DNA from: a virus
DNA: 10,609 bases
Virus genome (UHGV): UHGV-0223590
Strand: one strand, 5' to 3'
The translations under genes were made by a program, and so were the position numbers. The first letter of the stretch is position 1; each line of letters starts with the position of its first letter. This document shows, piece by piece, positions 1 through 10,609 of this stretch. A model generated the notes under the pieces. The model was not told where the DNA came from. It saw only the letters and a list, made by a program, of their open reading frames with translations, and did no database searches.

Positions 1-119
1 GGTGGGTGTTAGGGGCACCCACCAGCCATCTGCTCATGCGTTGGGTTCACAAGCAAACCTCAGGCCCACTGCTTTGCGCAAAAGCAGAATGAGCCTATCA
101 GAGACAGGCTTAATGATCC

Positions 120-1169
120 ATGCTTAATACTGTAAAAATATCCAGTTGTGAGTTAATCAACGCCGACTGCCTGGAATTTATCCGGTCGTTACCCGAAAAT
201 TCTGTTGACCTGATAGTCACGGACCCGCCGTACTTTAAAGTGAAGCCTGAGGGCTGGGATAACCAGTGGAAGGGCGACGATGATTACCTGAAGTGGCTGG
301 ACCAGTGTCTGGCGCAGTTCTGGCGGGTGCTGAAACCTGCCGGAAGTCTTTACCTGTTCTGTGGTCATCGCCTGGCATCTGATATCGAAATCATGATGCG
401 TGAACGCTTCAGTGTGCTGAACCATATTATCTGGGCGAAGCCGTCCGGACGCTGGAACGGATGCAACAAGGAAAGCCTGCGGGCGTATTTCCCCGCCACA
501 GAGCGCATTCTGTTCGCGGAACATTATCAGGGGCCGTATCGTCCGAAAGATGCCGGGTATGCGGCGAAGGGCAGTGCACTGAAACAGCATGTGATGGCCC
601 CGCTGATTTCTTACTTTCGTGATGCGCGCGCGGCCCTGGGGATAACGGCAAAACAGATTGCAGATGCCACAGGAAAGAAAAACATGGTGTCGCACTGGTT
701 CAGTGCCAGTCAGTGGCAGCTACCGAACGAAAGCGATTATCTGAAATTACAGTCGCTGTTTGCCCGGGTGGCAGAAGAGAAACATCAGCGCGGTGAACTG
801 GAAAAGCCCCACCACCAGCTGGTGGATACGTATACGTCACTGAACCGGCAGTATGTGGAGCTGCAGAGTGAATATAAGCATCTGCGGCGGTATTTTGGTG
901 TGACGGCGCAGGTGCCGTACACGGATGTGTGGACACATAAACCGGTGCAGTTCTATCCCGGGAAACATCCGTGCGAAAAACCGGCAGAAATGCTGCAGCA
1001 GATAATCAGCGCAAGCAGTCGTCCGGGTGACCTGGTTGCAGATTTTTTTATGGGCTCAGGTTCAACGGTAAAAGCGGCACTGGCGCTCGGGCGTCGTGCG
1101 ATTGGCGTTGAACTGGAGACCGGACGTTTTGAGCAGACAGTCAGGGAAGTTCAGGATTTAATCGTTTGA
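120..1169 (+). CDS. DNA methyltransferase, beta-class (N6-adenine or N4-cytosine), phage-type orphan
   Basis: 349-aa ORF. DPPY (motif IV) near the N-terminus in ...LIVTDPPYF..., and F-x-G-S-G-S-T (motif I, AdoMet binding) near the C-terminus in ...DFFMGSGSTV.... The IV-before-I order is typical of beta-class amino-MTases. The ORF starts right after an in-frame stop at 114-116, so 120 is the only ATG start. Confidence 0.85.
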   Translation: MLNTVKISSCELINADCLEFIRSLPENSVDLIVTDPPYFKVKPEGWDNQWKGDDDYLKWLDQCLAQFWRVLKPAGSLYLFCGHRLASDIEIMMRERFSVLNHIIWAKPSGRWNGCNKESLRAYFPATERILFAEHYQGPYRPKDAGYAAKGSALKQHVMAPLISYFRDARAALGITAKQIADATGKKNMVSHWFSASQWQLPNESDYLKLQSLFARVAEEKHQRGELEKPHHQLVDTYTSLNRQYVELQSEYKHLRRYFGVTAQVPYTDVWTHKPVQFYPGKHPCEKPAEMLQQIISASSRPGDLVADFFMGSGSTVKAALALGRRAIGVELETGRFEQTVREVQDLIV

Positions 1170-1218
1170 AACGGATGAGATTGCAGAATTAATTACGCAC
1201 CATTATTATTCTGCTCCC

Positions 1219-1294
1219 GGCCCTTTAGCTCAGTGGTGAGAGCGAGCGACTCATAATCGCCAGGTCGCTGGTTCAAATCCAGCAAGGGCCACCA
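1219..1294 (+). tRNA. ileZ: tRNA-Ile2 (anticodon CAU, ileX/ileZ-like; formally Met by anticodon alone)
   Basis: 76 nt, GGCCCTTTAGCTCAGTGGTGAGAGCGAGCGACTCATAATCGCCAGGTCGCTGGTTCAAATCCAGCAAGGGCCACCA. Cloverleaf folds by hand: 7-bp acceptor stem GGCCCTT/AAGGGCC, anticodon loop ctCATaa, T-loop TTCAAAT, encoded CCA. Closely resembles E. coli ileX as I recall it. Gene symbol is by analogy to the ileZ-argN-argO array of Stx phages. Confidence 0.85.
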
Positions 1295-1303
1295 TATCAC
1301 ATA

Positions 1304-1380
1304 CCACCATTAGCTCATCGGGATAGAGCGCCAGCCTTCGAAGCTGGTTGCGCGGGGTTCGAGTTCTCGATGGCGGTCCA
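1304..1380 (+). tRNA. tRNA-Arg (anticodon UCG)
   Basis: 77 nt. D-stem GCTC/GAGC, perfect anticodon stem CCAGC/GCTGG, anticodon loop ctTCGaa, T-loop TTCGAGT, encoded CCA. The acceptor stem has one A-C mismatch and the T-stem has G-U pairs; the 5' boundary is +/- 2 nt. Confidence 0.7.
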
Positions 1381-1394
1381 TTTATCGGTATTCT

Positions 1395-1468
1395 GCGTTG
1401 TTAGCTCAGCCGGACAGAGCAATTGCCTTCTAAGCAGCTGTGGTTGCACTCCTGTTGTTTCTGGTGGT
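1395..1468 (+). pseudogene. Degenerate tRNA-Arg(UCU)-like sequence (argU-like 5' half, broken T-arm and acceptor 3' strand)
   Basis: GCGTTGTTAGCTCAGCCGGACAGAGCAATTGCCTTCTAAGCAGC gives acceptor 5' strand, D-arm and an anticodon arm with loop ctTCTaa (anticodon UCU). Downstream there is no T-stem (GGTTGCACTCCTG instead of GGTTCGAATCC with pairing flanks) and no complement to GCGTTGT. The 3' end is approximate. Confidence 0.4.
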
Positions 1469-1614
1469 GATGGTGGACTTCAGCAGCCGGATAATGTCGG
1501 TGCTGTCTGATGGTGTTTTGGTGGCGGGTGTGTGGTTGTTGCTTTCCCGTTGCTGAAAAAGAAAGCATCAGGCGATTAGCAGGGTATCAGTTACCCGTTG
1601 AAATTTTTAAATAC

Positions 1615-1834
1615 CTCACAATTCCACAGCTTGATGATTGTCTGGCTGCCGGAGAATTTGTTAAAAATTACATCGCATGGTGAATCCCCCTCAGCGGCGG
1701 GGCATCTGGCAAAGTGTATGATCCAGAGAACATGCAAATTCAGTAGACAGGCTGAATTTACCGGGAGTCCCCTGGCACCATGCGACAGACAGAAATTAGG
1801 CTATACTTCAGCCCCTCTCCGGAGGGGCTTTTCT
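1615..1834 (+). repeat. Repeat copy A (~220 bp), ends in terminator-like hairpin
   Basis: Aligns by eye with 2083-2301 over its length. Shared blocks include TTGTCTGGC, GTTAAAAA(T)T, GCATGGTGAATCCCCCT, a CCCCT-N6-AGGGG hairpin, CACCGGGAG, GGCACCATGC and the terminal AGCCCCTCTCCGGAGGGGCT. Confidence 0.6.
1810..1834 (+). terminator. Putative intrinsic terminator (8-bp GC-rich stem, 4-nt loop, TTTCT tail)
   Basis: AGCCCCTC/TCCG/GAGGGGCT is a perfect hairpin followed by TTTCT on the + strand. There is no U-run on the opposite strand. Confidence 0.5.
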
Positions 1835-2082
1835 GTGCAGGATGTGTCACAGTTTCCTGAATTCTGAGTACTGTCCTGTTACTCAGGGTGCTATATTTTC
1901 TGACGTGATGAAAGTCTGCCGGAAGGCGGAACGTATCGGAAATGACCCAGTAGAGAAAACGTTGACTCAGATACCGATGCTGAGTTACCGGGAAACCGGC
2001 ATCACATGACCGCTATCCTTCCAGGCTCGCTCCGGCGGGCCTTTTTACTGCAGAAAACAGTTTTCCCGTAAAATGCCACGTT

Positions 2083-2301
2083 GCTCATAATTCAGGCTGG
2101 CGATTATTGTCTGGCCGGCGGGAAGTTTGTTAAAAAATTTCGCATGGTGAATCCCCCTGTGCGGAGGGGTAATCAGCGAGTAGGTATATGGGATAATCGC
2201 GGATTCAGGTGCTGGTACTGAATTCACCGGGAGGCACCCGGCACCATGCAATGGCACATAGCGCCACTCTCCAGCCCCTCTCCGGAGGGGCTGTTTATAT
2301 T
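2083..2301 (+). repeat. Repeat copy B (~220 bp), diverged copy of 1615-1834
   Basis: Same block order as copy A, with substitutions and small indels. The terminal hairpin is identical (AGCCCCTC-TCCG-GAGGGGCT). Confidence 0.6.
2273..2301 (+). terminator. Putative intrinsic terminator (same hairpin, weaker GTTTATATT tail)
   Basis: Identical 8-bp stem and loop to 1810-1829, followed by GTTTATATT. Confidence 0.35.
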
Positions 2302-2907
2302 GATTTTGTCAGATGTGAGTAAACTCCTTATGGACTTTGTTGTTTTAGCCCATAAGGACATATTTGCAGAGTGCAACGGTTATTAAAGCATTCATTCAAT
2401 ACGTTATCTGTATTTGTAGGGCATTCCTGGCTGTTTTTGATTAAATTCCAGAATGTTTTATTGAATGGTACTACGTTGTAAATGGTTACAGGTAGCACTT
2501 TGTTATTGAGCATGATGCCTGTGTGAGTCAGTGTAAATATACTTTCAGGAGGTAAGAAAGCATCCGATTGATACCAGATTATTAATTTTATTTTACTCCA
2601 TATGACTGAAAAAGATATTCCGCATGATGGCTGGATAACTGTATCAATCACAATCCACTTCATTTAGTTTCCTTGTTTATGCCTTGCTGGTGATGTTCTG
2701 AAAAGTATAAATGATATTTTTGAATTAAACCATAGAGCAGAATTATTTTTCTGATGTTGTTTATTGTTTATTTAAATGCAGGGTGGTTTATATCTCGTCT
2801 TGTAGTTTATCCATGCATATCTGCTTGATGATGAGGTTTTTATTTAAGGTATGGTTTTGTGTTTTTTCTGTATTACATGTCAGGTATTTTAAAGAATCAT
2901 TTTTCAG

Positions 2908-4401
2908 ATGGTGGAAAGAACCATGGCATTTAAACACTATGATGTTGTCAGGGCGGCGTCGCCGTCAGATCTTGCGGAAAAGCTGACACATAAACTGAAA
3001 GAGGGCTGGCAGCCGTTTGGTAGTCCGGTGGCCATAACCCCTTATACCCTGATGCAGGCGATTGCAGCAGAAGGTGATGTGGTCGTCAGTGGTGCAACTG
3101 AGCCGGAGTGGTACTACGTCATCGTACTGGCCGGGCAATCCAATGCCATGGCTTACGGTGAAGGGCTTCCGCTTCCGGATTCATACGATGCGCCCCATCC
3201 GCGCATTAAGCAACTGGCCCGTCGTAACACAGTGACTCCCGGTGGTGAAGTATGCGTATTTAACGACATCATTCCTGCTGACCATTGTCTGCATGATGTT
3301 CAGGATATGAGTACGATTAATCATCCCCGGGCTGACCTGAGCAAAGGGCAGTACGGCTGTGTCGGACAGGGCTTACATATTGCCAAAAAACTGCTTCCGT
3401 ATATCCCTAATAACGCGGGGATCCTGCTGGTACCATGCTGTCGTGGTGGTTCGGCATTCACCCAGGGCACGGAGGGGACATTCAGCGAGTCCACGGGGGC
3501 CAGTCAGGATTCGGCTCGCTGGGGAGTGGGTAAGCCGTTATATCAGGATCTGCTTTTCCGCACGAAGGCAGCATTGCAGAAAAACCCGAAAAACGTTTTG
3601 CTGGCGATATGCTGGATGCAGGGGGAATTCGATATGACGAATGCCAGTTACGCCCAGCAGCCAGCAGCATTTCTTGCAATGGTACAGCAGTTCCGTGCTG
3701 ACCTTGCCGGGCTGGCGGCGCAGTGTCACGGTGGAAGTCCGGCATCAGTCCCCTGGATTTGTGGCGACACGACATACGCGTGGAAACAAGAACACGGTAC
3801 GCAATATGAAGTGGTATATGGTGCATATAAAGGTAAAGAATCCCAGCAGATTTATTTTGTTCCCTTTATGACCGATGGTAGCGGAGTTAATACACCGACA
3901 AACAACCCGTCAGAAGATCCTGATATTGCCGGGTCTGGTTATTACGGTTCGGCATCCCGAACGAACAAAAACTGGGTATCATCAAATCGCCCGACGCATT
4001 TCAGCTCATGGGCGCGTCGTGGCATTATTCCCGATCGTATGGCAACTGCTATTCTGAACGTAGCCGGTCGCACCTTAGCCTTCATTAGTGGTAAGGCACC
4101 GGAAATCAAACCCTCGCCCGGCGGCGACACGCCATCGGGGCCGTCTGAAGATGCATCCGTACGCACAATCTCCCTGTTGCCGACAGCCGGAGATGCTGCT
4201 GCGCAGGGCTGGAGCATTAAGAATGGCGGAATTCAGTTGTCAGATGGTGTATTTAAGATCACCAAGCAGAGCAATAAAACCTGGTCCCTGATGCATCCGG
4301 TGGATGACGCAGTCTCCCTGCTGACACGGGGTGGCAGACTGAGCTGTAAGTTTCGACTGTCAGGCGCACTGACCAACAACCAGTTCGGTCTGGGAATTTA
4401 G
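2908..4401 (+). CDS. nanS-p: Prophage-encoded NanS-p-like sialate O-acetylesterase (DUF1737-like N-terminal domain + SGNH/DUF303 esterase)
   Basis: 497-aa ORF. The N-terminus (MAFKHYDVVRAASPSDLAEKLTHKLKEGWQPFGSP...) matches the small DUF1737-type domain typical of these phage proteins. An SGNH block-I-like GQSNAMAYGEG follows. Sitting downstream of the late-region tRNA array is the canonical nanS-p position in Stx/lambdoid prophages. An alternative start at ATG 2923 (MAFKHYDV) is plausible. Confidence 0.8.
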   Translation: MVERTMAFKHYDVVRAASPSDLAEKLTHKLKEGWQPFGSPVAITPYTLMQAIAAEGDVVVSGATEPEWYYVIVLAGQSNAMAYGEGLPLPDSYDAPHPRIKQLARRNTVTPGGEVCVFNDIIPADHCLHDVQDMSTINHPRADLSKGQYGCVGQGLHIAKKLLPYIPNNAGILLVPCCRGGSAFTQGTEGTFSESTGASQDSARWGVGKPLYQDLLFRTKAALQKNPKNVLLAICWMQGEFDMTNASYAQQPAAFLAMVQQFRADLAGLAAQCHGGSPASVPWICGDTTYAWKQEHGTQYEVVYGAYKGKESQQIYFVPFMTDGSGVNTPTNNPSEDPDIAGSGYYGSASRTNKNWVSSNRPTHFSSWARRGIIPDRMATAILNVAGRTLAFISGKAPEIKPSPGGDTPSGPSEDASVRTISLLPTAGDAAAQGWSIKNGGIQLSDGVFKITKQSNKTWSLMHPVDDAVSLLTRGGRLSCKFRLSGALTNNQFGLGI

Positions 4402-4610
4402 TGCTGGCGAGCCTTGACGGGCTGATCTCCTATGCAGCAAAGGTTCATCTCAAAGTAAGACGAACGCTATGACAAACCAAGATTCTATAGACCTATCTGA
4501 TCTTCGTGGAATGGTCAGTTTTCCAGACAAAAGGTAATCACCATAGTCGTATGGCTATGAATCTTGTTGCTGCAGATAAGCATTTTGTGATTGAAGTGGT
4601 CAAATCTCTC

Positions 4611-4639
4611 AAATGCAGTAAAATGCAGTGCGCTATAAT
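4611..4639 (+). promoter_or_regulatory. Putative sigma70 promoter for the 206-aa gene (perfect -10 TATAAT at 4634-4639, weak -35), overlapped by a tandem 9-bp direct repeat
   Basis: TATAAT lies 28 nt upstream of ATG 4668, with SD AAGGAG at 4655-4660. AAATGCAGT occurs at 4611-4619 and again at 4621-4629. Confidence 0.4.
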
Positions 4640-4667
4640 TCAATAACGGAGGGAGTAAGGAGAAGTC

Positions 4668-5288
4668 ATGAAAGATCAAGATGTTAGGTTCGCGGTGCAT
4701 CATAAGCTTTTGAAAGAATCGCATTTAGATCCAGACTGCCTTGTGGTCGATGAATTTTCCATATCCCTTGGCGCCAGTAGAGCAGACATTGCTGTAATAA
4801 ATGGTGTTATACACGGGTACGAGCTCAAAAGTGAATATGACTCTTTGGAGCGTTTGCCTCTTCAAATCAAGCATTATTCTTCTGTAATGGACAAGGTTAC
4901 TCTTGTCGTAGCTGAGAAACACCTTGAGGGAGCATTAAAGTTAATTCCAGGTTGGTGGGGCGTTAAAACGGTTTCTGTTGGGCCAAAAGGCGCCATTCTT
5001 ATAAAGCACATGCGTGGAGAAAAGCTTAATCGAAACCATGACACATTGATGCTCGCTCAATTGCTTTGGAAAGATGAATGTATCGACGTACTTGAACGAT
5101 GGGGCTATTCCAAAGGAATCAAAAGCAAGCCCCGATTTGAGTTATGGAATATTATTGCGGAAAATATTCCAATAGCGAATCTCAGGCTTGAAGTCAGAAC
5201 AGCCTTAAAGAAACGCGTAGGCTGGAAAGTTAAGGCTTGGCAGGCTGAGTCTGCGCCAACCAATAAAGCTGTCTCACGACTAACGTAA
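4668..5288 (+). CDS. Hypothetical protein, 206 aa, with PD-(D/E)xK-like motif arrangement (putative nuclease)
   Basis: ORF with strong SD (AAGGAG, 7-nt spacer) and an upstream TATAAT. Carries ...VVDEFSI...SRADIAVING..HGYELKSEYD..., i.e. E29, D39, E52-x-K54 spaced like a restriction-endonuclease-fold core. Lies in AT-rich DNA unlike the flanking phage genes. Confidence 0.65.
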   Translation: MKDQDVRFAVHHKLLKESHLDPDCLVVDEFSISLGASRADIAVINGVIHGYELKSEYDSLERLPLQIKHYSSVMDKVTLVVAEKHLEGALKLIPGWWGVKTVSVGPKGAILIKHMRGEKLNRNHDTLMLAQLLWKDECIDVLERWGYSKGIKSKPRFELWNIIAENIPIANLRLEVRTALKKRVGWKVKAWQAESAPTNKAVSRLT

Positions 5289-6297
5289 TATGGTGCGTAT
5301 GTGCAACTTTACGCCATTCTTTAGAGCCGCCAGATTTGTTAGCGCCTAATGATCTTTGGTAAATGTAATCATCCCCCCAACTAAATTTGGAGCCAAAGAC
5401 TTGATACTCTGGCGAACTAACAAGGGTAGTACATAAGTTTTTAGTTTGGCCCCATCCATTTCCTTTAACTGCGGTACCTTTTACAAAGATCCATGAGGTA
5501 TCGTTCGAATATCTCACTGAGACATACTGAGACATGAAGCGTGGGTCTACGCTCGTAATGGTAGAGCTAGCGGTGGGATAATCACTAAAACTTGGCGTTC
5601 TTCCATTGCTAAAATTCTGTACTACGTACATCCAAAGATCGTATTCATGGCGCGGAATATGATGAACTTGATGTTGCGGTATCCCTGCCTGTGATGCCGG
5701 GTATGCGGTTGAAGATAAAATCAAGTTTCTCCACGGAGCTTGGCCTGATAATGTGTTGACCATGCTTAATGCTTGTTGTTTTAAACTATCAGTTGCGTTT
5801 TGAATATCTCCAAAATCAATGATTACATCAATTAAACTAGGATGAATATTTAAGTGGTTAACCAGACTTGTGAATTGGTGCCATGTCTGGGGGGTGATAG
5901 ATATAGCGAGCCCATTGATTAAGTTGCGTTGAACAGCATGTATATAGTTTGTTGAATATGCGGGAGAAACAACAGGGATAATTTCCTTACCATTTACTCT
6001 AGCATCTTGGATACACATATCTAGAGGATGATGGCGGCTCGAACCATGTTTATCTAAATATTTAACATCCAGCAAAACAGGACGATTGGCTTTCCAGGAT
6101 GCCGCAAGGTTAATACCGAAGTCAGATAAGTAAGAACTCAAACTCTTCTTGTAGCATTCGTTTTCATAATCCCAGTCTATGTCTGGAATGGTAATGATCG
6201 GAGTAAAACCAGAGAGCGTAGTTTGATCTAAAAGCATCAGAGATTCATATTCAGCAGGCTTCCATTTCAGCTGTGGATAATATTGATGTTGACTCAT
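5230..6297 (-). CDS. Hypothetical protein, 355 aa, partner of the 206-aa gene (convergent, 59-bp 3' overlap)
   Basis: Long minus-strand ORF with a strong SD (AAGGAG, 6 nt before ATG, seen as CTCCTT at 6303-6308 on +). AT-rich like its partner. No catalytic motif I can assign by eye. Confidence 0.65.
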   Translation of the reverse strand: MSQHQYYPQLKWKPAEYESLMLLDQTTLSGFTPIITIPDIDWDYENECYKKSLSSYLSDFGINLAASWKANRPVLLDVKYLDKHGSSRHHPLDMCIQDARVNGKEIIPVVSPAYSTNYIHAVQRNLINGLAISITPQTWHQFTSLVNHLNIHPSLIDVIIDFGDIQNATDSLKQQALSMVNTLSGQAPWRNLILSSTAYPASQAGIPQHQVHHIPRHEYDLWMYVVQNFSNGRTPSFSDYPTASSTITSVDPRFMSQYVSVRYSNDTSWIFVKGTAVKGNGWGQTKNLCTTLVSSPEYQVFGSKFSWGDDYIYQRSLGANKSGGSKEWRKVAHTHHITLVVRQLYWLAQTQPAKP

Positions 6298-6327
6298 TAA
6301 AACTCCTTAAAATCTTTACTTATCCTA

Positions 6328-6356
6328 AGTATAGTGTTATGGCGTAACGCCAATTG
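6328..6356 (-). promoter_or_regulatory. Putative promoter/operator for the 355-aa gene (-10 TATACT; inverted repeat TGGCG-N3-CGCCA in spacer/-35 region)
   Basis: On the minus strand TATACT lies about 30 nt upstream of the start codon. The palindrome TGGCGTAACGCCA (6340-6352) sits immediately upstream of it. Confidence 0.3.
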
Positions 6357-6520
6357 TTTTTATACACTTGAAAACATTGGGAAAAGTTGAGCTATATCTA
6401 AATTTACAAAATTGGATGTTATAGAAATCGAGGTTTCAACTAGGCATGGAACTGCAAAATTTTTAATGCCTGCACGCGAAAGTCGTTGGCGGGTCCTTTC
6501 CGGTGATCCAGATCGTTACG

Positions 6521-6532
6521 GGGCGGCGACCT
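6521..6532 (+). other. cos: cosN (lambda-type cohesive end site, GGGCGGCGACCT)
   Basis: Exact match to the lambda 12-nt cohesive end. The preceding CTTTCCGGTGATCC...GTTACG resembles the lambda right end, and the following CTCGCGG(T)TTTTC(A)CTATTTATGAAAATTTT matches the lambda left end almost base for base. Distance to the Nu1 start (187 nt) is close to lambda's. Confidence 0.9.
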
Positions 6533-6707
6533 CGCGGTTTTTCACTATTTATGAAAATTTTTCAGGGAAAATCGTGTCGGTACTTCTCGAATATAACTTT
6601 TTGTTTTTTTTAATATTGCATTCATAAATGTCCGACATGAAAGTGTCCGAAAATGCCTTTTTTTGGCGTTTTCATGTCGGGCCTTGTATTTGATAATGAG
6701 TTGTTCT
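6533..6707 (+). promoter_or_regulatory. cosB-like region (terminase small-subunit binding sites) between cosN and Nu1
   Basis: Repeated motif related to CGACATGAAA in both orientations: TGTCCGACATGAAAG at 6629-6643, TGTCCGAAAATG at 6645-6656, and the inverted TTTTCATGTCGGG at 6669-6681. Position corresponds to the lambda R3-I1-R2-R1 region. Confidence 0.6.
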
Positions 6708-7256
6708 ATGAAGGTTAATAAAAAGAGGCTTGCCGAAATTTTCAACGTGGATCCGCGAACGATTGAACGCTGGCAGTCTCAGGGGCTCCCTTGCGTCTCC
6801 AAAGGCAGTAAGGGCATTGAATCTGTATTTGATACTGCCATGGCAATTCAGTGGTATGCGCAGAGGGAAACTGATATCGAAAACGAAAAGCTCCGCAAAG
6901 AACTGGCCGATTTGCGTGCGGCAGCGGAGTCAGATTTACAACCCGGCACCATTGACTATGAACGCTACCGGCTCACAAAAGCGCAGGCAGATGCGCAGGA
7001 ACTGAAAAATGCCCGTGAAGACGGAGTGGTGCTGGAAACTGAACTATTTACCTTCATTCTGCAACGTGTGGCACAGGAGATTTCGGGGATACTTGTGCGT
7101 GTGCCGTTGACATTACAGCGTAAATATCCGGACATTTCACCATCACACCTTGATGTGGTGAAAACTGAAATCGCGAAAGCCTCCAATGTTGCAGCTAAGG
7201 CCGGTGAAAACGTGGGCGGGTGGATCGATGATTTCAGACGCACAGAAGGCAGCTAA
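6708..7256 (+). CDS. nu1: Terminase small subunit (lambda gpNu1 homologue)
   Basis: [28 protein letters not shown]...[48 protein letters not shown]... is colinear with lambda Nu1 (MEVNKKQLADIFGASIRTIQNWQEQGMP...). Start moved to the internal ATG 6708 (MKVNKK) rather than the track's 6663, matching the lambda N-terminus and the distance from cosN. Confidence 0.9.
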
Positions 7257-9156
7257 TGCAGCCGGTGCGATAGCTACAGGGCTTTTATCTCTCATTATTC
7301 CTGTTCCACTGACGACAGTTCAGTGGGCCAATAAACATTATTACCTTCCTAAAGAGTCGTCTTATACCCCGGGGCGGTGGGAAACACTGCCGTTTCAGGT
7401 TGGCATCATGAACTGTATGGGCAACGATTTGATTCGCACTGTTAACCTGATTAAATCTGCCCGTGTTGGTTATACAAAGATGTTGCTGGGAGTGGAGGCT
7501 TATTTTATTGAGCATAAATCACGCAACAGCCTTCTTTTTCAGCCCACGGACTCAGCTGCTGAAGATTTTATGAAATCTCATGTTGAGCCAACGATAAGGG
7601 ATGTTCCTGCATTGCTGGAGCTGGCTCCATGGTTCGGAAGAAAACACCGCGATAATACGCTCACCCTGAAGCGTTTTTCCTCCGGTGTGGGTTTCTGGTG
7701 TCTGGGGGGAGCGGCAGCAAAAAACTACCGTGAAAAATCCGTGGATGTGGTTTGTTATGACGAGCTTTCCTCGTTCGAACCGGATGTTGAAAAAGAGGGT
7801 TCGCCAACCCTGCTGGGGGATAAACGTATTGAGGGCTCTGTATGGCCAAAATCCATTCGCGGCTCGACGCCTAAAATCAAAGGCTCCTGCCAGATCGAAA
7901 AAGCCGCTAACGAGTCGGCACATTTCATGCGTTTTTATGTGCCCTGTCCGCACTGTGGGGAGGAGCAGTATCTGAAATTTGGCGATGATGCCTCGCCTTT
8001 CGGTCTTAAGTGGGAGAAGAATAAGCCAGAAAGTGTTTTCTACCTTTGTGAGCATCATGGCTGTGTGATCCATCAGTCTGAGCTTGACCAGAGTAACGGG
8101 CGGTGGATCTGTGAAAACACGGGCATGTGGACTCGTGACGGTCTGACATTTTTCAGCGCCGCGGATAATGAAATTCCGCCGCCGCGCTCCATCACATTCC
8201 ATATCTGGACGGCGTACAGTCCGTTCACCACCTGGGTACAGATTGTCTATGACTGGCTGGATGCACTGAAAGATCCCAACGGCCTGAAAACCTTTGTGAA
8301 CACCACGCTGGGCGAGACCTGGGAAGAGGCCGTGGGCGAAAAACTCGATCACCAGGTGCTGATGGATAAGGTTGTGCGTTACACGGCTGCGGTGCCTTCC
8401 CGGGTGGTTTATCTGACGGCGGGCATTGACTCGCAGCGAAACCGTTTTGAGATGTATGTCTGGGGATGGGCTCCGGGAGAGGAAGCCTTTCTGGTGGATA
8501 AAATCATCATTATGGGGCGTCCCGATGAGGAAGAGACGCTGTTACGTGTGGATGTGGCGATCAACAAAAAATACCGCCATGCAGACGGAACCGAAATGAC
8601 CATTTCCCGTGTCTGCTGGGACACCGGGGGGATCGATGGCGAAATTGTCTATCAGAGGTCAAAAAAACACGGTGTTTTCCGGGTGCTGCCGGTAAAAGGT
8701 GCATCTGTTTATGGCAAGCCGGTGATCACCATGCCAAAAACCCGCAATCAGCGGGGCGTGTATCTGTGCGAAGTGGGGACGGACACCGCAAAAGAAATTC
8801 TCTATGCCCGTATGAAAGCCGATCCCACGCCTGCGGATGAAGCCACGTCGTATGCCATCCGTTTTCCTGATGATCCGGAGATTTTTTCGCAGACAGAGGC
8901 GCAGCAACTGGTGGCGGAAGAGCTTGTGGAGAAGTGGGAAAAAGGAAAGATGCGTCTGCTGTGGGATAACAAAAAGCGGCGTAACGAAGCGCTGGACTGC
9001 CTGGTGTATGCCTACGCGGCATTACGTGTGTCCGTGCAACGCTGGCAGCTTGATCTGGCTGTACTGGCAAAATCCCGGGAAGAAGAGACGACCCGGCCAA
9101 CCCTTAAAGAACTGGCAGCGAAGCTGTCCGGAGGAGTGAATGGTTACAGTCGCTGA
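7228..9156 (+). CDS. A: Terminase large subunit (lambda gpA homologue)
   Basis: Long stretches match lambda gpA as I recall it: [145 protein letters not shown]. Start set at ATG 7228 (MISDAQ...), overlapping the Nu1 3' end by 29 nt as in lambda; the track's ATG 7186 lies in the same frame but inside Nu1. Confidence 0.9.
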
Positions 9157-9346
9157 ACTGCAGGCGCTGCGTCAGGCGCGCCTTGATTTATTAACCGGTA
9201 AACGGGTGGTGTCTGTCCAGAAAGATGGTCGCAGAATTGAATATACGGCAGCTTCTCTGGATGAGCTTAACCGGGCGATCAATGATGCGGAGTCGGTACT
9301 GGGGACAACCCGCCGTCGCCGTCGTCCGCTGGGAGTGAGGTTATGA
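9140..9346 (+). CDS. W: Head-tail joining protein (lambda gpW homologue)
   Basis: 68 aa; LTGKRVVSVQKDGRRIEYTAASLDEL...RRRRRP matches lambda gpW ([26 protein letters not shown]...). GGAGG SD upstream; overlaps the A stop. Confidence 0.9.
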   Translation: MVTVAELQALRQARLDLLTGKRVVSVQKDGRRIEYTAASLDELNRAINDAESVLGTTRRRRRPLGVRL

Positions 9347-9915
9347 AACGAACGCCTGTCCTGATTGATGTGAACGGCGTTCCGCTTCGGGAGAGCCTCA
9401 GCTACAACGGTGGCGGTGCAGGATTTGGCGGGCAAATGGCAGAGTGGTTGCCACCCTCGCAGAGTGCCGATGCGGCCCTGCTGCCCGCGTTGCGTCTGGG
9501 GAATGCCCGTGCAGATGATCTGGTGCGCAATAACGGAATAGCGGCCAATGCGGTGGCCCTGCATAAGGATCACATTGTCGGGCATATGTTTCTGATTAGC
9601 TACCGTCCGAACTGGCGCTGGCTGGGGATGCGGGAGACCGCGGCAAAAAGTTTTGTCGATGAGGTGGAGGCGGCCTGGTCAGAATACGCAGAAGGGATGT
9701 TTGGTGAGATCGACGTGGAAGGGAAACGCACGTTTACGGAATTTATCCGTGAAGGTGTGGGCGTTCATGCGTTTAACGGCGAAATCTTTGTGCAGCCGGT
9801 CTGGGATACGGAGAGTACGCAACTGTTTCGTACGCGTTTTAAAGCCGTGAGTCCGAAACGGGTGGACACGCCAGGACACGGTAGCTGCCAGTATCAATAT
9901 CAAGCCGGGCCATGA
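9343..9915 (+). pseudogene. B: Portal protein gene B, truncated (N-terminal ~180 codons only)
   Basis: MKRTPVLIDVNGVPLRESLSYNGGGAGFGGQMAEWLPP...[15 protein letters not shown] is near-identical to the lambda gpB N-terminus. Homology stops at about 9882 and the ORF ends 11 codons later ([10 protein letters not shown]). Lambda gpB is over 500 aa. Confidence 0.85.
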
Positions 9916-10609
9916 TTATTATTTTTATATCCGCAGTGTGAATACAGTCGGCAAATCGGCATTCGTGGAGGCTGTCGGTCGGGCGAGCGATGATGCGGAA
10001 GGTTACCTGGATTTTTTCAAAGGAGAAATCGGGAAAACACATCTGGCCCAGGAGCTGTGGACGCAGATTGATAACGGTCAGCTTGCGCCGGACCTGGCTG
10101 AAATCAGGACGTCCATTACGAATGTCAGCAATGAAATCACGCAGACCGTCAATAAAAAACTGGAAAATCAGAGTGCGGCAATCCAGCAGATACAGAAAGT
10201 TCAGGTTGATACAAATAATAACCTGAACAGCATGTGGGCCGTGAAACTGCAGCAGATGCAGGACGGACGCCTTTATATTGCGGGTATCGGTGCCGGTATT
10301 GAGAATACGCCAGCAGGAATGCAGAGTCAGGTGCTGCTGGCGGCAGACAGGATTGCGATGATTAATCCTGCGAATGGCAACACAAAGCCGATGTTTGTTG
10401 GTCAGGGCGATCAGATATTTATGAATGAAGTGTTCCTGAAATATCTGACGGCTCCCACCATTACCAGCGGCGGTAATCCTCCGGCATTTTCCCTGACACC
10501 GGACGGGCGGCTGACGGCGAAAAATGCCGATATCAGCGGTAACGTGAATGCGAACTCCGGGACGCTCAACAACGTCACGATTAACGAGAACTGTCGGGTT
10601 CTGGGAAAA
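9884..10609 (+). pseudogene. J: Tail fibre/host-specificity protein J, 5'-truncated internal fragment (no start codon; runs off window end)
   Basis: A frame different from B translates to [47 protein letters not shown]...[76 protein letters not shown]..., colinear with the distal part of lambda gpJ. Open to the window end. An in-frame stop at 9848-9850 lies just upstream and there is no ATG near the junction. Confidence 0.85.

Follow-up and report, generated by a model that had tools for sequence, protein, structure and literature searches.

The window analyzed here, a 10,609-nucleotide stretch of the virus genome UHGV-0223590, belongs to a lambdoid prophage, which is best assigned to the ompW-site family of E. 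coli and has packaging and head genes of the phage-21 type. Its gene order runs from a DNA methyltransferase gene through accessory functions and the cohesive-end site to the packaging genes, and it ends in a join between the 5' part of a portal gene (B') and the 3' part of the host-specificity gene J ('J). A phage-borne tRNA pair (1219-1380) lies directly downstream of the methyltransferase gene, and both copies of the STnc100 sRNA sit between this pair and an IraM/PmrD-like ORF. The window holds no Stx or effector cargo. Its features are as follows.

120-1169: DNA methyltransferase (N6/N4)
1219-1294, + strand: tRNA with anticodon CAT, called Met by ARAGORN and annotated as tRNA-Ile in RefSeq relatives
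1304-1380, + strand: tRNA-Arg (TCG)
1645-1838, + strand: STnc100 sRNA copy 1 (Rfam RF02076, 133 bits, full-length)
2114-2302, + strand: STnc100 sRNA copy 2 (Rfam RF02076, 133 bits, full-length)
2328-2663, - strand: IraM/PmrD-like ORF
2908-4401, + strand: truncated SASA-family sialate O-acetylesterase (Pfam DUF1737 and SASA)
4398-4400: second deletion junction with TTA microhomology; 2,279 bp missing, corresponding to 22405-24683 of the DA33133 locus (L001)
4668-5288, + strand: sce7726/P4-cII-like protein gene (PADLOC 'cll', E=4e-31)
5230-6297, - strand: Beta_protein gene (Pfam PF14350, E=8e-56; PADLOC PD-Lambda-2_C, E=4e-32; PADLOC 'beta')
6521-6532, + strand: cosN, 12-nt cohesive-end site GGGCGGCGACCT (exact match, 0.04 expected by chance)
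6708-7256, + strand: Nu1, terminase small subunit, 182 aa, intact (Pfam Phage_Nu1 positions 1-163 of 164, E=2e-81)
7228-9156, + strand: A, terminase large subunit, 642 aa, intact (Pfam GpA_ATPase and GpA_nuclease, near full length)
9140-9346, + strand: W, head-tail joining (head completion) protein, 68 aa, intact (Pfam gpW)
9343-9883, + strand: B', 5' fragment of the portal gene, codons 1-180 of 530, phage-21 type (99.3-95.4% nucleotide identity to portal genes)
9882-9883: deletion junction, 2-nt TA common to both parents (three-way comparison)
9884-9915, + strand: out-of-frame tail of the B' ORF, 10 J-derived codons and a TGA stop (from the translation)
9884-10609, + strand: 'J, 3' part of the tail-tip host-specificity gene from codon 774 of 1159, running off the window end

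Megablast comparison of positions 9343-10609 with phage records returned matches from two sources and never one alignment over the full query. Query positions 1-541 (window 9343-9883) matched portal genes, with 99.3% nucleotide identity to those of PhiR12 phages and 95.4% to gene 4 of phage 21, and query positions 540-1267 (window 9882-10609) matched J host-specificity genes, with 99.6% identity to VT1-Sakai and PPompW phages and 99.7% to J of E. coli 042; E-values were 0 for all portal and J matches. The original prediction, made from the letters alone, had portal-like sequence running from 9343 to about 9882 and J-like sequence in a different frame from about 9884, and this is the arrangement that was found. 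The portal and J matches have exactly 2 nt in common, TA at 9882-9883, and in each comparison the portal matches stop at 9883 and the J matches begin at 9882. When the window was aligned with both the portal-side and the J-side sequence of E. coli 042 and DA33133, identity was seen to change parent at GGACACGG[TA]GCTGCC, so that the switch does occur within a few nucleotides and the breakpoint lies no more than 1 nt from the position first proposed. We found no IS element, att-like site, inserted sequence or repeat longer than 2 nt at the join, and Rfam and tRNA scans gave no match at the junction. In the 10 nt that precede the join, the portal-side and J-side parents are similar at six positions.

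The B frame runs from 9343 and the J frame from 9884, a shift of +1. Because J is read in another frame than B, the portal ORF continues for 10 meaningless codons in J sequence before its stop codon at 9913-9915. Residues 1-180 of the resulting 190-aa ORF differ from a full portal protein by one substitution, and divergence begins at residue 181. The ORF matches Pfam Phage_portal_2 (PF05136) with E=6e-33 over profile positions 2-141 of 354, which places it in the portal family by sequence; it falls well short of the full-length (~530 aa) dodecameric portal, and B' is a gene fragment rather than a functional member of the family. The earlier description of this segment as lambda-gpB-like holds for the family and is refined as to type, since the fragment is 95% identical in nucleotide sequence to phage 21 and only 61% identical in amino acid sequence to lambda gpB (residues 7-182).

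On the other side of the join, the J fragment encodes a protein that matches J of E. coli 042 (1159 aa) without a difference over residues 774-1015, and its first residue aligns to residue 774 of lambda gpJ, i.e., lambda nt 17822. In Pfam the fragment matches Ig_J_second over positions 63-104 of 105 together with Phage_Tail_Tip, and the Ig_GpJ_C domain was found in the J of other genomes that carry the junction; the breakpoint thus cuts the second Ig-like domain. The J frame has a TGA upstream at 9848-9850, its earliest possible start is a GTG at 9938, and no start codon or ribosome-binding context of its own was found for the remnant at the junction. Although sequence and domains assign this 386-codon start-less remnant to gpJ, 773 codons are gone and a complete ORF with N-terminal domains and a start is lacking. 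We found no expression signals for the portal stub or the J fragment, and both are best read as pseudogene fragments, probably without function. The name "tail-fibre gene J" given to this segment earlier was correct in identifying the distal part of J; the product is more precisely the tail-tip/central-fibre host-specificity protein and not a side tail fibre.

Genes missing relative to intact ompW-site prophages

The junction was compared with intact relatives and with phage lambda, the reference named in the original prediction. Alignment with lambda gave only 62-89% identity and an approximate deletion from lambda nt 3,385 to 17,822; the informative references were phage-21-type and ompW-site relatives rather than lambda itself. 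With the intact relatives a single breakpoint was obtained, as predicted, and both flanks are collinear with ompW-site prophages in the following segments.

E. coli 042 (L002), window 6490-9883: locus 1521-4915, 97.5% identity
E. coli 042 (L002), window 9882-10609: locus 20001-20728, 99.7% identity
DA33133 (L001), window 4398-9883: locus 24681-30166, 99.8% identity
DA33133 (L001), window 9882-10594: locus 45210-45922, 91.6% identity

Our results showed that 15,087 bp are missing at the B'/'J junction relative to E. coli 042 and 15,045 bp relative to DA33133. The genes in the missing stretch are the rest of B (350 codons), C/Nu3, D, E, FI, FII, Z, U, V, G, T, H, M, L, K, I and the first 773 codons of J, and the annotation of the relatives includes an S49 protease/scaffold, a decoration protein, the major capsid protein and the tape measure protein (H) in this interval. 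It had been proposed that one deletion removed the rest of B and the whole head and tail module. The single breakpoint and the loss of 15.0-15.1 kb of B-to-J genes bear this out, except that lom, stf (side tail-fibre) and tfa (tail-fibre assembly) survive downstream of J in carriers of the junction, so not all tail-related genes are gone. A single deletion event would be the parsimonious reading of the alignments; nested successive deletions would leave the same end product.

A second deletion was found in the lysis region. Window positions 1-4400 align to positions 18001-22404 of the DA33133 locus and positions 4398-9883 to 24681-30166, with the TTA at 4398-4400 common to both. The genes for holin, YdfR and lysozyme are gone, an Rz-type lysis gene is reduced to its last ~20 nt, and the esterase gene has lost its 3' end, which leaves 497 aa of the 617-618 aa of intact versions. 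The second junction is common to those carrier loci that extend to it. Since the lysis cassette is also gone, the prophage is even more defective than the original prediction stated: relative to its intact close relatives it lacks the 15.0-15.1 kb of virion genes and 2.3 kb of lysis genes. The intact ompW-site prophages of DA33133 and 042, like phage 21, have the same gene order and near-identical sequence flanking the junction; unlike the window, the two ompW-site prophages possess their own 15-kb B-to-J structural block and 2.3-kb lysis block.

Sister prophages of the same family have had the same modules deleted. One (L018, ENA ERZ28755773) has lost esterase-to-Rz, i.e., the lysis cassette, and A-to-Z, and another (L015, OX460323.1) has lost A-to-Z/U and V to the end of J. 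Their breakpoints differ from those of the window and their terminase A is truncated, and these deletions are therefore events separate from the window's. Loss of lysis and head/tail genes is recurrent in this prophage family, and such repeated loss fits the usual view of prophage decay, in which genes dangerous or useless to the host are lost (PMC6379469). A further locus, L014, carries an IS1 insertion beside cos.

Origin of the junction

The exact 190-aa fusion ORF was found on 55 public E. coli contigs (NCBI, ENA and Logan) of up to 354 kb. Eight carrier loci (L003-L010) from independent assemblies have the same junction; each aligns collinearly with the window over its available length at 99.9% identity and shows a few private SNPs. 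To the right of J the carriers have lom, stf and tfa, then an 'ompW remnant, yciE, yciF and trpA, which is the right-hand context of the ompW prophage of 042, and their chromosomal flank (yciE-trpA) is 100% identical to E. coli chromosomes. A look-up with the methyltransferase protein for the left end of the carriers' prophage (int, ompW) returned only other lineages. Chromosomal integration and vertical inheritance are indicated by the right flank, by the 55 contigs, and by the SNPs, an inversion and a further deletion among the carriers. Because the carriers share the junction and an overlap of 2 nt cannot yield a misjoin in an assembly graph, the deletion is real and inherited within an E. 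coli lineage. We assign a probability of about 0.9 to the reading that the junction records a genuine deletion, passed on vertically, within a lambdoid prophage at the ompW site, where the "within" rests on the right-hand context of the carriers and on the intact relatives.

A join with TA only and without an IS element, att site or long repeat is a signature of illegitimate recombination. Microhomology is confined to this TA at B'/'J and to the TTA at the second deletion. In the proposed mechanism, illegitimate recombination would have linked codon 180 of the portal gene with codon 774 of J at the 2-nt TA, probably in a single event that removed ~15 kb, from the rest of B through J codon 773. 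From established knowledge, replication slippage or microhomology-assisted end joining would be the likely process. The out-of-frame fusion would leave the 190-aa portal stub and the start-less J remnant, and after both deletions the prophage would be predicted to form no heads and no tails and to cause no cell lysis, while still carrying cos, an intact terminase, W, lom, the side tail-fibre genes and accessory genes. The deletions may have spread since the loss of lethal late functions would be neutral or advantageous to the host.

An alternative is that one cell contained two lambdoid prophages and that each contributed one side of the join. Illegitimate recombination accompanied by a chromosomal rearrangement could have linked them, or one prophage could have suffered a deletion and then acquired the J-lom-stf arm of the other through homologous replacement. 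E. coli genomes have several J copies each, and the best relatives of the two sides differ (99.8% to DA33133 and 97.5% to 042 on the left; 91.6% to DA33133 and 99.7% to 042 in J). However, differing best relatives are expected of lambdoid prophages, which are mosaics, and the head type and J allele like those of the window already occur together at ompW in 042 and AP022173. Furthermore, the right flank of the carriers is the normal ompW attR/yciE/trp context, and the spacing of the breakpoints equals the normal B-to-J distance in two relatives. None of the intact prophages of DA33133, 042, AP022173 and WP5-S17-ESBL-10 was at least 99.5% identical on both flanks, which points to a direct parent that is a mosaic not yet in hand. 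Because such a both-flank parent is missing from the set and the carriers are seen only from the right-hand side, we keep an origin of the J arm from another prophage as an unlikely alternative to deletion within one prophage.

Retained packaging genes and accessory functions

The original prediction that cos, Nu1, A and W are retained was upheld. The cosN site is exact, window position 6521 aligns to lambda nt 1, and Nu1, A and W each encode a full-length protein without a single difference from its counterpart in the intact DA33133 prophage (100% identity). That cos and these three genes show no damage is explained by recency, since the flanks are 99.8% identical to intact relatives. Separately, three clustered synonymous differences distinguish Nu1 codons 12, 15 and 17 (6743, 6752 and 6758) of the window from all eight carrier loci; this cluster looks like a short recombination patch rather than a set of independent mutations.

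The sce7726/P4-cII-like and Beta_protein genes (4668-6297) are convergent and overlapping and lie between the lysis deletion and cos. The PADLOC 'cll' and 'beta' matches point to accessory genes first seen in P4 rather than to hijacking genes. On the basis of its profile matches the pair is a candidate anti-phage defence cargo left untouched by both deletions; it is missing in some sister prophages (L016, L017, L019 and L020).

The retained genes raise a second alternative, namely that the doubly deleted prophage, with its cos, terminase, W, switchable side tail-fibre genes and defence pair, might be a domesticated helper-dependent element that was kept because it is useful. In that case a 21-type phage, either co-resident or superinfecting, would supply heads and tails and so package and spread the element, or the element's portal stub or terminase would interfere with related incoming phages. 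The intact cos and terminase would suit this idea, as would the candidate defence pair between the two deletions, the restriction of both deletions to functions that kill the host or do nothing for it, the independent loss of the same modules in relatives, and the packaging of defective O157 prophages with the help of co-resident prophages (PMC2669165). Against it, intactness is explained by recency, and the three of 14 SNPs among carriers that fall in A (2 nonsynonymous and 1 synonymous, too few sites to carry weight) give no sign of purifying selection. Phage satellites of the P4-like and PICI type have dedicated helper-hijacking genes, whereas the window has no satellite hallmark genes and shows retention of cos and terminase only, so that we did not class it with them. 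That no expression signals were found for the fragments likewise speaks against this idea, and altogether we consider a selected, satellite-like role very unlikely.

Events of this kind have long been known and are ordinary prophage decay. E. coli K-12 itself carries DLP12, Rac and Qin, chromosomally fixed lambdoid remnants without head and tail genes, in which accessory genes, pieces of tail-fibre genes and isolated late genes (for example nohA/nohD, homologous to Nu1) have survived. These remnants are much older and more eroded than the window, whose flanks are still 99.8% identical to intact prophages and whose cos, Nu1, A and W are perfect. Defective lambdoid prophages with deletions such as those described here are well documented (PMC2669165; PMC6379469). 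In the O157:H7 Sakai lambdoid prophages Sp3-Sp15, deletions, frameshifts and IS insertions affect portal, head, tail and lysis functions, and the terminase is intact in nearly all of the defective ones (Asadulghani et al. 2009; PMC2669165). The window resembles these prophages in being lambdoid, in its virion and lysis defects, in its retained terminase and in its J allele, which is 99.6% identical to VT1-Sakai/PPompW; it differs in coming from another host lineage and in having one clean B-to-J junction and a separate lysis deletion.

Occurrence in public assemblies and later changes

A search of 5,426 complete RefSeq E. coli genomes did not turn up the B'/'J junction (no match covering at least 80% of the query), and a 30-mer across the join had no match in the GTDB species representatives, so all support for the junction comes from draft assemblies. 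An assembly artefact, in which an assembler would have misjoined B and J in a genome with an intact structural module, was first suggested by this absence from complete genomes and could draw on J being a multi-copy repeat in E. coli (median 3 places per genome), but it is hardly credible given the exact ORF on 55 draft contigs from several sources, the shared junction in eight independent assemblies that differ by private SNPs, and the 2 nt common to B and J, which are far too short for a k-mer graph misjoin.

None of the papers that we found describes this B'/'J allele; it is already present in public databases under the misleading name "phage portal protein [Escherichia coli]", which is attached to what is really a truncated, out-of-frame fusion. 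Similarly, gene callers take the GTG at 9938 in carrier genomes and report a downstream 368-aa "tail tip" ORF, which is a gene fragment. Beyond annotation the importance of the junction is small. It does provide a clean, datable case of the disarming of a lambdoid prophage, in which two microhomology deletions take exactly the lysis and virion modules and are accompanied by parallel independent losses in sister prophages, and it could be used to mark the lineage or be included in studies of prophage decay and domestication.

Two further rearrangements were seen among the carriers. A 3,119-bp segment comprising the tail-fibre C-terminus and tfa is inverted in L003 (14382-17500) relative to L004 and is bordered by gix-like inverted repeats (L003 14382-14413 and 17469-17500). 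The invertase gene beside it is reduced to an N-terminal remnant of 60-68 aa (L004 17525-17731), and flipping must therefore occur in trans, by another Din-family invertase. The host-range switch thus appears still to toggle in this tail-less prophage. Finally, L007 has an extra deletion of 1,437 bp (equivalent to L003 12118-13554) that joins the lom region to the stf region, which indicates that erosion goes on within the carrier lineage.
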